Positions 32,514 through 55,810 of a DNA stretch of 64,000 nt are shown piece by piece. The stretch comes from Escherichia coli (GTDB taxonomy: Bacteria; Pseudomonadota; Gammaproteobacteria; Enterobacterales; Enterobacteriaceae): NCBI RefSeq assembly GCF_048403405.1, contig NZ_CP183129.1. One strand, written 5' to 3'. Numbering within the stretch: position 1 is the stretch's first letter; each line of letters opens with the position of its first letter. A program made the translations under genes and the position numbers. The notes below the pieces were generated by a model, which made no database searches, was not told the DNA's origin, and worked only from the letters and a program-made list of their open reading frames with translations.

Positions 32514-34169
32514 ATGACTCATCTTCCCCACTGGTGGCAAAACGGCGTTATCTACCAGATTTATCCAAAGAGTTTTCAGGACACCACGGGTAGCGGCACC
32601 GGCGATTTACGTGGCGTTATCCAACGCCTGGACTATCTGCATAAACTGGGCGTTGATGCCATCTGGCTAACCCCCTTTTATGTCTCTCCCCAGGTCGATA
32701 ACGGTTACGACGTAGCGAATTATACGGCGATTGATCCCACCTATGGCACGCTGGACGATTTTGACGAACTGGTGACGCAGGCAAAATCTCGCGGGATTCG
32801 TATCATTCTCGATATGGTGTTTAACCATACCTCTACCCAACATGCCTGGTTTCGCGAGGCGCTGAACAAAGCAAGCCCTTACCGCCAGTTTTATATCTGG
32901 CGCGATGGAGAACCAGAAACGCCACCGAACAACTGGCGTTCAAAATTCGGTGGTAGTGCGTGGCACTGGCATGCAGAAAGCGAACAGTACTATTTGCATC
33001 TCTTTGCACCAGAACAGGCGGATCTCAACTGGGAGAATCCAGCGGTACGCGCAGAGCTGAAAAAAGTCTGTGAGTTCTGGGCCGATCGTGGGGTCGACGG
33101 GTTGCGCCTGGATGTGGTGAATCTGATCTCCAAAGATCCGCGTTACCCTGAAGACCAGGATGGCGACGGGCGTCGCTTCTACACCGACGGGCCACGAGCA
33201 CACGAGTTTTTGCACGAGATGAACCGCGATGTGTTTACGCCACGCGGGTTAATGACCGTAGGTGAAATGTCCTCCACCAGCCTTGAGCATTGCCAGCGAT
33301 ACGCGGCTCTGACAGGCAGTGAATTGTCGATGACCTTTAATTTTCATCACCTGAAAGTCGATTATCCCGGTGGTGAAAAATGGACGCTGGCTAAACCTGA
33401 CTTTGTGGCGTTGAAAACATTGTTCCGCCACTGGCAACAAGGAATGCACAACGTGGCATGGAATGCCTTGTTCTGGTGTAACCACGATCAGCCGCGCATT
33501 GTTTCTCGCTTTGGTGATGAAGGTGAATACCGCGTGCCTGCGGCAAAAATGCTGGCGATGGTGCTGCATGGCATGCAGGGAACGCCGTATATCTACCAGG
33601 GCGAAGAGATTGGCATGACCAACCCGCATTTCACGCGCATTACTGACTATCGCGACGTGGAGAGCCTCAATATGTTTGCCGAACAGCGCAACAATGGGCG
33701 TGATGCCGACGAGTTATTGGCAATCCTCGCCAGTAAATCCCGTGACAACAGTCGCACACCCATGCAATGGAGCAACGGCGATAATGCCGGGTTTACGGCT
33801 GGCGAACCGTGGATTGGTCTGGGCGATAACTATCAGGAAATCAACGTAGAAGCCGCGCTGACCGATGAGTCCTCGGTGTTTTACACCTACCAAAAGTTAA
33901 TCGCACTGCGTAAGCAAGAAGCCGTTCTGACATGGGGCGATTACCAGGATCTGCTGCCAAACAGCCCTGTATTGTGGTGCTATCGCCGTGAATGGAAGGG
34001 GCAAACCTTGTTGGTCATTGCCAACCTTAGCCGTGAGATCCAACCCTGGCAACCAGGGCAAATGCGCGGCAACTGGCAGCTTGTGATGCATAACTACGAA
34101 GAAGCCTCACCACAACCCTGCGCCATGACTTTACGGCCTTTTGAGGCTGTCTGGTGGTTACAAAAGTAA
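32514..34169 (+). CDS. treC: Trehalose-6-phosphate hydrolase (GH13)
   Basis: ORF 32367-34169; start chosen at MTHLPHWWQNGVIYQIYPKSF (551 aa); GH13 motifs GVDGLRLDVVN and FWCNHDQPR. Confidence 0.9.
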   Translation: MTHLPHWWQNGVIYQIYPKSFQDTTGSGTGDLRGVIQRLDYLHKLGVDAIWLTPFYVSPQVDNGYDVANYTAIDPTYGTLDDFDELVTQAKSRGIRIILDMVFNHTSTQHAWFREALNKASPYRQFYIWRDGEPETPPNNWRSKFGGSAWHWHAESEQYYLHLFAPEQADLNWENPAVRAELKKVCEFWADRGVDGLRLDVVNLISKDPRYPEDQDGDGRRFYTDGPRAHEFLHEMNRDVFTPRGLMTVGEMSSTSLEHCQRYAALTGSELSMTFNFHHLKVDYPGGEKWTLAKPDFVALKTLFRHWQQGMHNVAWNALFWCNHDQPRIVSRFGDEGEYRVPAAKMLAMVLHGMQGTPYIYQGEEIGMTNPHFTRITDYRDVESLNMFAEQRNNGRDADELLAILASKSRDNSRTPMQWSNGDNAGFTAGEPWIGLGDNYQEINVEAALTDESSVFYTYQKLIALRKQEAVLTWGDYQDLLPNSPVLWCYRREWKGQTLLVIANLSREIQPWQPGQMRGNWQLVMHNYEEASPQPCAMTLRPFEAVWWLQK

Positions 34170-34180
34170 ATCTTCGCTAA

Positions 34181-34212
34181 GCCCCGGTAATGCCGGTCAT
34201 TCCGGGGTTTTG
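34181..34212 (+). terminator. Intrinsic terminator after treC
   Basis: GCCCCGG-loop-CCGGGGTTTT. Confidence 0.6.
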
Positions 34213-34354
34213 CCTGTCAGCATGTTGTTTTTGTTGATTTTATAATCAAAAAATTCATTAAAAAATTTACATATCGCTGTAGCGCCCGTCATCCGTACGC
34301 TCTGCTTTTTACTTTGAGCTACATCAAAAAAAGTTCAAACATCCTTGATGCAAA

Positions 34355-34402
34355 GCACTATATATAGACTTTAAAATGCGTCCCAACCCAATATGTTGTA
34401 TT
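34355..34402. promoter_or_regulatory. Two candidate NrdR boxes upstream of nrdDG
   Basis: GCACTATATATAGACT (34355-34370) and CCCAATATGTTGTATT (34387-34402), AT-rich 16-bp imperfect palindromes about 32 bp apart, resembling the acaCwAtATaTwGtgt NrdR-box pattern. Confidence 0.45.
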
Positions 34403-34562
34403 AATCGACTATAATTGCTACTACAGCTCCCCACGAAAAAGGTGCGGCGTTGTGGATAAGCGGATGGTGATTGCGGAAAGCACCGGAAAACGAAACAAAA
34501 AAACCGGAAAACGCCTTTCCCAATTTCTGTGGATAACCTGTTCTTAAAAATATGGAGCGATC

Positions 34563-36701
34563 ATGACACCGCATGTGATGAAACGAGACGGCTGCAAAGT
34601 GCCGTTTAAATCAGAGCGCATCAAAGAAGCGATTCTGCGTGCAGCTAAAGCAGCGGAAGTCGATGATGCCGATTATTGCGCCACTGTTGCCGCGGTTGTC
34701 AGCGAGCAGATGCAGGGCCGCAACCAGGTGGATATCAATGAGATCCAGACCGCAGTTGAAAACCAGCTGATGTCGGGTCCATACAAACAACTGGCTCGTG
34801 CTTACATCGAGTACCGTCACGATCGCGACATTGAACGTGAAAAACGCGGTCGCCTGAACCAGGAGATCCGTGGTCTGGTCGAGCAGACCAACTCCTCGTT
34901 ACTCAACGAAAACGCCAACAAAGACAGCAAGGTGATTCCAACCCAGCGCGATCTGCTGGCCGGGATCGTGGCTAAACACTATGCACGCCAGCACCTGCTG
35001 CCGCGTGACGTGGTGCAGGCACATGAACGTGGTGATATTCACTATCACGATCTCGATTACTCGCCGTTCTTCCCGATGTTCAACTGCATGTTGATCGACC
35101 TGAAAGGCATGCTGACCCAGGGCTTTAAAATGGGGAACGCCGAGATTGAACCGCCGAAGTCGATCTCTACGGCAACCGCGGTAACTGCGCAGATTATTGC
35201 CCAGGTCGCCAGCCATATTTATGGCGGCACCACCATTAACCGTATCGATGAAGTGCTGGCACCGTTTGTCACCGCCAGCTACAACAAACATCGCAAGACC
35301 GCAGAAGAGTGGAACATCCCGGACGCCGAAGGCTACGCTAACTCTCGTACCATCAAAGAGTGCTACGATGCCTTCCAGTCGCTGGAGTACGAAGTAAACA
35401 CCCTGCACACCGCCAACGGTCAAACGCCGTTTGTGACCTTTGGTTTTGGTCTGGGCACCAGCTGGGAATCGCGCCTGATTCAGGAATCTATCCTGCGTAA
35501 TCGTATCGCAGGCCTCGGTAAAAACCGTAAAACTGCGGTGTTCCCGAAACTGGTGTTTGCGATTCGCGATGGCCTGAACCATAAAAAAGGCGATCCGAAC
35601 TACGACATCAAACAGCTGGCGCTGGAGTGCGCAAGCAAGCGCATGTATCCGGATATCCTGAACTACGATCAGGTAGTGAAAGTCACCGGTTCGTTTAAAA
35701 CCCCGATGGGCTGCCGCAGCTTCCTCGGCGTGTGGGAAAATGAAAACGGCGAGCAGATCCACGATGGTCGTAACAACCTCGGCGTGATCAGCCTGAACCT
35801 GCCGCGTATTGCTCTGGAGGCAAAAGGCGATGAAGCCACCTTCTGGAAGCTGCTGGATGAACGTCTGGTGCTGGCACGTAAGGCGCTGATGACCCGTATC
35901 GCTCGTCTCGAAGGCGTGAAAGCGCGCGTAGCCCCGATCCTCTATATGGAAGGCGCTTGTGGCGTGCGTCTGAATGCTGACGACGACGTTTCTGAAATCT
36001 TCAAAAACGGTCGTGCGTCTATTTCGCTGGGTTACATCGGCATCCACGAAACCATTAACGCGCTGTTCGGCGGCGAGCATGTTTACGACAACGAGCAGCT
36101 GCGCGCGAAAGGTATTGCGATTGTTGAACGTCTGCGTCAGGCAGTGGATCAGTGGAAAGAAGAAACGGGTTATGGCTTCAGTCTCTACAGCACGCCGAGT
36201 GAAAACCTGTGCGACCGCTTCTGCCGTCTCGATACCGCTGAGTTTGGCGTGGTGCCGGGCGTGACCGATAAAGGTTACTACACCAACAGTTTCCACCTTG
36301 ATGTGGAGAAAAAGGTGAACCCGTATGACAAGATCGACTTTGAAGCGCCTTACCCGCCGCTGGCGAACGGTGGTTTCATTTGCTACGGCGAGTATCCAAA
36401 CATTCAGCACAACCTGAAGGCGCTGGAAGATGTCTGGGATTACAGCTATCAGCATGTACCGTATTACGGCACCAATACGCCGATCGATGAGTGCTACGAG
36501 TGTGGCTTTACTGGCGAGTTCGAGTGCACCAGCAAAGGCTTCACTTGCCCGAAATGTGGTAACCATGACGCCTCCCGTGTGTCGGTGACTCGCCGCGTGT
36601 GCGGATATTTAGGTAGCCCGGATGCACGTCCGTTTAACGCCGGTAAGCAGGAAGAAGTTAAGCGCCGCGTTAAACATTTGGGGAATGGGCAGATAGGTTA
36701 A
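34563..36701 (+). CDS. nrdD: Anaerobic ribonucleoside-triphosphate reductase (class III)
   Basis: 712-aa ORF; C-terminal glycyl-radical motif RVCGYLGS and cysteine cluster CYECG...CPKCG. Confidence 0.97.
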   Translation: MTPHVMKRDGCKVPFKSERIKEAILRAAKAAEVDDADYCATVAAVVSEQMQGRNQVDINEIQTAVENQLMSGPYKQLARAYIEYRHDRDIEREKRGRLNQEIRGLVEQTNSSLLNENANKDSKVIPTQRDLLAGIVAKHYARQHLLPRDVVQAHERGDIHYHDLDYSPFFPMFNCMLIDLKGMLTQGFKMGNAEIEPPKSISTATAVTAQIIAQVASHIYGGTTINRIDEVLAPFVTASYNKHRKTAEEWNIPDAEGYANSRTIKECYDAFQSLEYEVNTLHTANGQTPFVTFGFGLGTSWESRLIQESILRNRIAGLGKNRKTAVFPKLVFAIRDGLNHKKGDPNYDIKQLALECASKRMYPDILNYDQVVKVTGSFKTPMGCRSFLGVWENENGEQIHDGRNNLGVISLNLPRIALEAKGDEATFWKLLDERLVLARKALMTRIARLEGVKARVAPILYMEGACGVRLNADDDVSEIFKNGRASISLGYIGIHETINALFGGEHVYDNEQLRAKGIAIVERLRQAVDQWKEETGYGFSLYSTPSENLCDRFCRLDTAEFGVVPGVTDKGYYTNSFHLDVEKKVNPYDKIDFEAPYPPLANGGFICYGEYPNIQHNLKALEDVWDYSYQHVPYYGTNTPIDECYECGFTGEFECTSKGFTCPKCGNHDASRVSVTRRVCGYLGSPDARPFNAGKQEEVKRRVKHLGNGQIG

Positions 36702-36885: not shown

Positions 36886-37350
36886 ATGAACTTTCATCAG
36901 TACTATCCTGTCGACATCGTCAACGGCCCCGGCACTCGCTGCACCCTGTTTGTCTCCGGGTGTGTTCATGAATGCCCCGGTTGCTATAACAAAAGCACAT
37001 GGCGGGTAAATTCCGGTCAGCCATTTACCAAAGCAATGGAAGACCAGATCATTAACGATCTAAATGACACTCGCATCAAACGCCAGGGGATTTCCCTCTC
37101 CGGCGGCGATCCGCTGCATCCGCAAAACGTGCCGGATATTCTGAAACTGGTACAACGAATCCGCGCCGAATGTCCGGGTAAAGACATTTGGGTGTGGACA
37201 GGCTATAAACTCGACGAACTCAACGCTGCGCAAATGCAGGTTGTTGATTTGATTAACGTACTGGTCGACGGCAAATTTGTGCAGGATTTAAAAGACCCTT
37301 CCCTGATCTGGCGCGGCAGCAGCAATCAGGTGGTGCATCATTTGCGATGA
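36886..37350 (+). CDS. nrdG: Anaerobic ribonucleotide reductase activating protein (radical SAM)
   Basis: 154-aa ORF; CxxxCxxC cluster GCVHECPGCYN. Confidence 0.95.
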   Translation: MNFHQYYPVDIVNGPGTRCTLFVSGCVHECPGCYNKSTWRVNSGQPFTKAMEDQIINDLNDTRIKRQGISLSGGDPLHPQNVPDILKLVQRIRAECPGKDIWVWTGYKLDELNAAQMQVVDLINVLVDGKFVQDLKDPSLIWRGSSNQVVHHLR

Positions 37351-55710: not shown

Positions 55711-55810
55711 ATGCCGGATGCGGCGTAAACGCCTTGCCAGGCCTACAAAATCGTCCAAAATCAATATATTGTGGGGACTGCGTAGGCCTGATCGGCATAG
55801 CGCATCAGCC
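55711..55810. repeat. REP/BIME elements between msrA and ytfL
   Basis: ATGCCGGATGCGGCGTAAACGCCTTGCCAGGCCTAC and the inverted copy GTAGGCCTGATCGGCATAGCGCATCAGCC. Confidence 0.85.

Follow-up and report, generated by a model that had tools for sequence, protein, structure and literature searches.

Two 16-bp boxes upstream of nrdD were found to be, almost certainly, the NrdR operator of the FNR-activated nrdDG promoter of Escherichia coli. The boxes lie at 34355-34370 and 34386-34401 of the window, which is the whole stretch of E. coli DNA analyzed here (64,000 nucleotides). The operator is already known for exactly this sequence, and nothing about it is new. The nrdDG operator of E. coli K-12 was reportedly described by Rodionov and Gelfand in 2005 and by Torrents and colleagues in 2007. 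The case is best viewed as a positive control, in which a characterized repressor operator was located from raw sequence to within one base and then recovered unambiguously by the scans. Through this operator, the amount of anaerobic ribonucleotide reductase is adjusted to the dATP/ATP balance, and NrdR has been discussed as an antibacterial target.

Location of the operator

The gene order around the operator is treR-treB-treC-nrdD-nrdG, as assigned by full-length equivalog matches in NCBIfam. Both nrdD and nrdG carry the same annotation in the closest genome, and nrdD is also so named in K-12. The boxes and the genes that they precede are as follows.

34355-34370, no strand assigned: NrdR box 1, GCACTATATATAGACT; -30 to -15; 6 of 6 conserved positions
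34386-34401, no strand assigned: NrdR box 2, ACCCAATATGTTGTAT; +2 to +17; 6 of 6 conserved positions
34387-34402: box 2 in the frame of the preliminary description, CCCAATATGTTGTATT; 1 of 6 conserved positions
34563-36701, plus strand: nrdD, anaerobic (class III) ribonucleoside-triphosphate reductase; NCBIfam NF006732, 1220 bits, full length
36886-37350, plus strand: nrdG, activating radical-SAM enzyme, second gene of the operon; NCBIfam NF008335, 311.8 bits

The treC-nrdD intergenic spacer (34170-34562) is 393 bp long and has matches in 5425 of 5426 complete E. coli genomes. This spacer had been called a 390-bp leader in the preliminary description; the 5'UTR itself is only about 178 nt when +1 is placed by means of the published FNR positions. 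The distance to nrdD, given earlier as about 160-200 bp, agrees with our measurement, which puts the boxes 208 to 161 bp upstream of the ATG at 34563.

Strain JE86-ST05 has a spacer that is 100% identical to the one in the window. Outside the spacer, identity across treB-nrdD is about 99.2%, and the window does not contain the IS621 element of JE86-ST05 (BLAST); the source strain of the window differs from JE86-ST05. The nrdR gene is located outside the window. It was found in 5424 of the 5426 complete E. coli genomes and is annotated adjoining ribD in JE86-ST05, the genome with the identical spacer.

Register and spacing of the two boxes

The NrdR box is a 16-bp partial palindrome with conserved C4, A6, A8, T9, T11, and G13, with the C and G 8 bp apart, and paired boxes are separated by a linker of 15-16 bp, with both boxes being required for NrdR binding (bioRxiv 10.64898/2026.05.11.724285). 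The two strings quoted in the preliminary description were found at the positions given for them (GCACTATATATAGACT at 34355-34370 and CCCAATATGTTGTATT at 34387-34402). The frame of box 1 stood as described, but that of box 2 was one base too far downstream, the correct frame being 34386-34401. Since the register of box 2 shifts by one base, the spacing is 31 bp and not 32 bp. The estimate of about 32 bp between the boxes was, thus, replaced by a 15-bp linker (34371-34385) with box centers 31 bp apart. This distance is close to three helical turns, so that the two boxes face the same side of the helix. The 5+16+15+16+5 layout of a published 57-mer nrdDG probe agrees with 34386-34401 as the frame of box 2.

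Scoring of the boxes against background

For a symmetrised position weight matrix (PWM), we combined 64 boxes that precede nrdD in distant genera with the four boxes of E. coli nrdAB and nrdHIEF, which were taken from published probes. Box 1 scored 16.2 bits and ranked first among 63,985 window positions, while box 2 (34386-34401) scored 14.3 bits and ranked third. Placed one base downstream, at 34387-34402, box 2 scored -40.3 bits (rank 47,429 of 63,985). The PWM scan proposed in the preliminary description, therefore, put both boxes far above background once box 2 had been reframed. As a pair at 31 bp, the boxes reached a score of 30.5. The next-best pair in the window had -2.2, and none of 200 shuffles scored above 15.9.

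A comparison with the nrdAB and nrdHIEF promoters had also been proposed, and it was conducted with the K-12 promoters instead of those of the source strain. Using a PWM derived from non-Escherichia nrdD promoters only, the published pairs were recovered at 29.9 for K-12 nrdHIEF and 26.0 for K-12 nrdAB (box 1 + box 2), and the window pair scored 29.9.

The six-position core, CNANATNTNG, occurs 23 times in the window against 17.8 +/- 4.1 expected, which is the background frequency. Because of this count, the core alone is uninformative, and only the pair statistic discriminates. Core pairs at spacings of 25-49 bp were found once in the 64 kb, with 0.017 expected at the allowed 31-32 bp. No other NrdR candidate was detected in the spacer; in a scan of 34000-34700 the third-best site scored -0.9 bits and had no partner. 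Neither background PWM scores nor boxes elsewhere in the leader, the two outcomes named beforehand as speaking against the assignment, were observed. A third NrdR box 31 bp 3' of box 2 was considered and rejected, with a pair score of -3.6.

Two lone NrdR-like boxes were seen in other parts of the window. One, AATCAATATATTGTGG at 55759-55774, had the second-highest score of all window positions (15.6 bits). It is situated in the msrA-ytfL spacer, with a REP-like repeat on either side, and no second box is found 31-32 bp away. In JE86-ST05, IS621 (IS110 family) is inserted about 10 bp downstream of this box, at the equivalent of window position 55784; the insertion is not in the window. The other, at 20780, lies within a 555-aa open reading frame and is likewise without a partner.

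Conservation of the operator

The comparative set consisted of 80 Enterobacterales loci from species-representative genomes, with NrdD identities of 85-99%. A pair matching all 12 of the 12 defining positions was present no more than 300 bp upstream of nrdD in all 80 species, with a spacing of 31 bp in 73 of them and 32 bp in seven. No such 12/12 pair was found elsewhere in the 566 kb retrieved around the 80 loci. The six defining positions were invariant in all 160 boxes, and the flanks and the linker varied. The linker part TTARAATGC is kept in all the Enterobacteriaceae aligned and the remaining linker is variable. An unrelated linker is found in Yersinia, Serratia, Pectobacterium, Dickeya, and others, in which the defining box positions are nevertheless kept. 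This is the pattern that would be expected if the boxes were the selected element and the linker carried only a local -10. Within the species, 4865 of 5426 complete E. coli genomes share exactly this 47-bp operator.

Identity to DNA bound by NrdR

The sequence features, statistics, and conservation come from the present analysis; for binding, its dependence on nucleotides, and repression, we rely on experiments published for the same sequence. Window positions 34350-34406 are letter-for-letter the same as the 57-bp Cy5-labeled nrdDG probe (PMC12176259). E. coli NrdR loaded with ATP and dATP binds this 57-mer with a KD of 160 +/- 37 nM (Rozman Grinberg et al., FEBS J 2025, PMC12176259). With ADP and dATP the KD is 152 nM, and with ATP alone there is no binding; the affinities of NrdR for the nrdDG, nrdHIEF, and nrdAB operators are similar, at 113-160 nM (PMC12176259). 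The E. coli nrdD promoter is repressed in vitro by dATP-loaded NrdR in reactions that did not include FNR, and a FIMO search of K-12 gave box pairs at nrdAB, nrdHIEF, and nrdDG only (bioRxiv 10.1101/2025.03.28.645925). In Salmonella, a mutation in either nrdDG box causes derepression to or above the level of a delta-nrdR strain (PMC2892513). The initial proposal that the boxes are NrdR sites upstream of nrdDG is, thus, borne out by the full agreement of each box at the conserved positions, the PWM, the conservation, and the identity to the NrdR-bound probe.

FNR sites and core promoter

The operator overlaps the core promoter, and two FNR sites lie at its upstream side. The features of this region are listed below.

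34314-34327, no strand assigned: FNR site 2, TTGAGctacATCAA; center -64.5; high-affinity activator site; 9 of 10 to TTGAT-N4-ATCAA
34345-34358, no strand assigned: FNR site 1, TTGATgcaaAGCAC; center -33.5; weaker auxiliary site; 8 of 10 to the consensus
34372-34377, plus strand: candidate -10 hexamer TAAAAT; -13 to -8, in the linker; 5 of 6 to TATAAT; putative assignment
34385, plus strand: nrdDG transcription start (+1), back-calculated by mapping the published centers -33.5 and -64.5 to 34351.5 and 34320.5

FNR binding and the positions -33.5 and -64.5 are taken from PMC10425943, which cites Roca et al. 2008. The 54-mer nrdDG probe of that study corresponds to window positions 34310-34363 with one difference, at 34334, outside both sites. 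The preliminary description had suspected FNR sites in the leader without pinpointing them, and they do exist at 34314-34327 and 34345-34358 (PMC10425943). Its statement that there is no perfect TTGAT-N4-ATCAA also holds, the best match being 9 of 10, TTGAGCTACATCAA at 34314-34327. One-mismatch FNR matches number five in the window against 2.6 expected, which is not significant by sequence alone, and FNR site 2 is the only one near nrdD.

Both FNR sites are strongly conserved in 48 Enterobacteriaceae species, in which the TTG and ATCAA of site 2 are invariant. At FNR site 1, TTGATGCAAA is nearly invariant in Enterobacteriaceae, and the complete site 1 string also occurs in a further locus of the set (L002). 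The centers of FNR sites 2 and 1 lie -42 and -11 bp from the center of box 1 in 41 and 46 loci, respectively. FNR site 1 shares 4 bp with NrdR box 1, namely the first four bases of the box. This overlap has been noted, and direct competition between FNR and NrdR there proposed, for nrdDG (PMC2892513).

Position 34355, which is position 1 of box 1 and position 11 of FNR site 1, is G in E. coli, E. albertii, and a few others and T in most Enterobacteriaceae. With the G, the right half-site of FNR site 1 reads AGCAC (8/10 for the whole site) instead of ATCAC (9/10), and the conserved NrdR positions are untouched. In loci outside the core Enterobacteriaceae (L050-L081), there is a single FNR-like site, TTGnTCTAnnTCAA, at -29, -40/-41, or -51 from the center of box 1. 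As these distances change in steps of about 10-11 bp, FNR and the NrdR operator may stay in the same helical phase at each of them. A TTGAT-N6-ATCAA inverted repeat at 34234-34249 was rejected as an FNR/CRP-like site; its spacing is wrong, it is not in K-12 (5 SNPs), and it is unconserved. It probably represents the stray FNR half-sites mentioned in the preliminary description. The five SNPs between K-12 and the window fall within 34242-34250, a dense 9-bp patch that is unusual in a spacer that is 97% identical overall.

With +1 at 34385, the operator covers -30 to +17 and, thus, lies across the core promoter. The candidate -10, TAAAAT, ends 7 nt ahead of the derived +1. A generic sigma-70 scan did not call the nrdDG promoter and returned only a minus-strand match. 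This miss was discounted because the promoter is activator-dependent and has no -35. A TATAAT is also found at 34410-34415 (+26 to +31), 9 bp 3' of box 2. It is kept as TAnnAT in most Enterobacteriaceae, as is the TAATCGnCTA before it. Two possible readings of this motif are a second -10 and a conserved stretch of the initial transcript.

Proposed mechanism

The layout leads to the following model. When dATP is high relative to ATP, NrdR forms a tetramer loaded with ATP and dATP, in which two pairs of Zn-ribbons each contact one box. A tetramer lying over -30 to +17 would cover 4 bp of FNR site 1, the -10 in the linker, and the start site. Judging from this geometry, repression of nrdDG most likely works by steric exclusion of RNA polymerase and probably also of FNR at site 1. 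With ATP alone, NrdR assembles into filaments or higher oligomers in which the DNA-binding faces are buried, and the promoter would be freed. Under anaerobic conditions, [4Fe-4S]-FNR at -64.5, helped by the site at -33.5, activates nrdDG. Expression therefore requires anaerobiosis and dNTP demand together. NrdR is a modulator over FNR control rather than the main switch.

DnaA boxes and leader RNA

The leader between the operator and nrdD contains the following DnaA boxes.

34451-34459, minus strand: distal DnaA box, TTATCCACA; +67 to +75, in the 5'UTR
34528-34547, minus strand: proximal double DnaA box, TTATCCACA (34528-34536) and a weak partner, TTAAGAACA (34539-34547)

The 64-kb window has two perfect DnaA boxes in all, both of them in the nrdD 5'UTR and both invariant across about 46 Enterobacteriaceae species. 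The proximal double box starts at +144 and ends 16 bp ahead of the nrdD ATG. A DnaA ChIP-seq peak has been reported upstream of nrdD, with the double box listed as tTTAAGAACAggTTATCCACAg (PMC11317965). The reverse complement of the proximal double box is tTTAAGAACAggTTATCCACAg, and the match spans window positions 34527-34548. The distal box is at least 90% conserved in 48 Enterobacteriaceae species, and the DNA between the two boxes varies freely. The proximal double box is perfectly conserved across Enterobacteriaceae. In two species, Escherichia sp. ESNIH1 and Enterobacteriaceae UBA7338, a whole leader segment of about 100 bp with both DnaA boxes is absent. The NrdR pair is at -103 in these two loci, not at about -205, and has a 16-bp linker, making them natural deletion variants of the DnaA-bound leader.

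One possible reading of this region is a DnaA layer, acting as a roadblock or by looping, that would couple anaerobic dNTP synthesis to the initiation of replication, together with a possible second start at TAnnAT that escapes NrdR. We consider this unlikely. If it were true, DnaA control would add to that by NrdR (dNTP pool) and FNR (oxygen).

The leader was also examined for RNA elements. An Rfam scan of 34100-34700 gave a single match, STnc410, whose 15.5 bits fall short of the gathering score of 50; it was rejected as a chance match. RNAalifold found no consensus structure in the 5'UTR of 47 species, the variable middle of which is poorly aligned. These models do not support a conserved leader RNA. 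In the minimum-free-energy fold of the E. coli sequence, GCGGAAAG pairs with CCUUUCC between the DnaA boxes (34475-34521). Other genera have GGGAAG...CTTCCC or GGGGAAA...TTTCCCC in the same place, and these variants hint at possible compensatory change.

Alternative explanations

The boxes could be chance palindromes, or part of a core promoter or of curved AT-rich DNA with -10-like TATA runs that serves as a target of H-NS or Fis, with no specific role for NrdR. The background-level count of the single core would fit this, as would the lone boxes of similar score at 55759 and 20780, which have no ribonucleotide reductase gene close by, and H-NS has been reported to act at nrdDG (PMC12176259). 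However, the 31-bp pair is unique in the window and scores above all shuffles, and the defining positions are invariant in 160 boxes of 80 species amid varying flanks and linker. Purified NrdR also binds this exact DNA in a nucleotide-dependent manner (PMC12176259), and we regard this explanation as extremely improbable. The same negligible probability is given to the idea that the real NrdR boxes are elsewhere in the 393-bp spacer and that these two are decoys. Nothing speaks for it except that box 2, when framed one base off, scored -40 bits, which resembled a refutation; shifting the frame by that base brings it to 14.3 bits, the next site in 34000-34700 has only -0.9, and the published probe covers exactly the two boxes (PMC12176259).

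Another possible explanation is that the promoter is mainly FNR-dependent and that the derepression of box mutants is caused by changed contacts of FNR or RNA polymerase and not by the loss of NrdR binding. Box 1 does overlap FNR site 1 by 4 bp, and the NrdR1-box mutant of Salmonella was expressed above the delta-nrdR level, for which its authors invoked FNR access (PMC2892513). Box 2, on the other hand, is 3' of +1 and off the FNR sites, yet mutating it alone gave the delta-nrdR level (PMC2892513). In addition, NrdR needs both boxes for binding (bioRxiv 10.64898/2026.05.11.724285), and repression was seen in vitro in reactions without FNR (bioRxiv 10.1101/2025.03.28.645925). As a replacement for NrdR binding this explanation is very unlikely, if a little less so than the preceding two. 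It is a complication layered over the main explanation, an NrdR operator at an FNR-activated promoter, rather than an alternative to it.

Comparison with known systems

The closest known system is the nrdDG operon of E. coli K-12. Its spacer differs from that of the window at 11 of 393 positions, which leaves the NrdR boxes, both FNR sites, the -10, and the DnaA boxes unchanged. One SNP is found between the FNR sites (34334, T in the window, C in K-12); others cluster far upstream, at 34242-34250. From these differences, the operator of the window is predicted to be functionally no different from that of K-12.

In the E. coli nrdHIEF and nrdAB promoters, as in that of nrdDG, a 15-bp linker separates two 16-bp boxes, and the PWM scores of the three pairs are comparable. 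The co-regulators differ among the three, being FNR and DnaA for nrdDG, Fur and IscR for nrdHIEF, and DnaA, Fis, and H-NS for nrdAB.

The nrdDG promoter of Salmonella Typhimurium (PMC2892513) has the orthologous architecture. In Salmonella enterica subsp. arizonae, box 1 is TCACTACATATAGACT, and box 2, the 31-bp spacing, and both FNR sites are as in E. coli. Box 1 of Salmonella differs from that of E. coli at positions 1 and 7, and FNR site 1 has ATCAC in Salmonella and most genera in contrast to AGCAC in E. coli.
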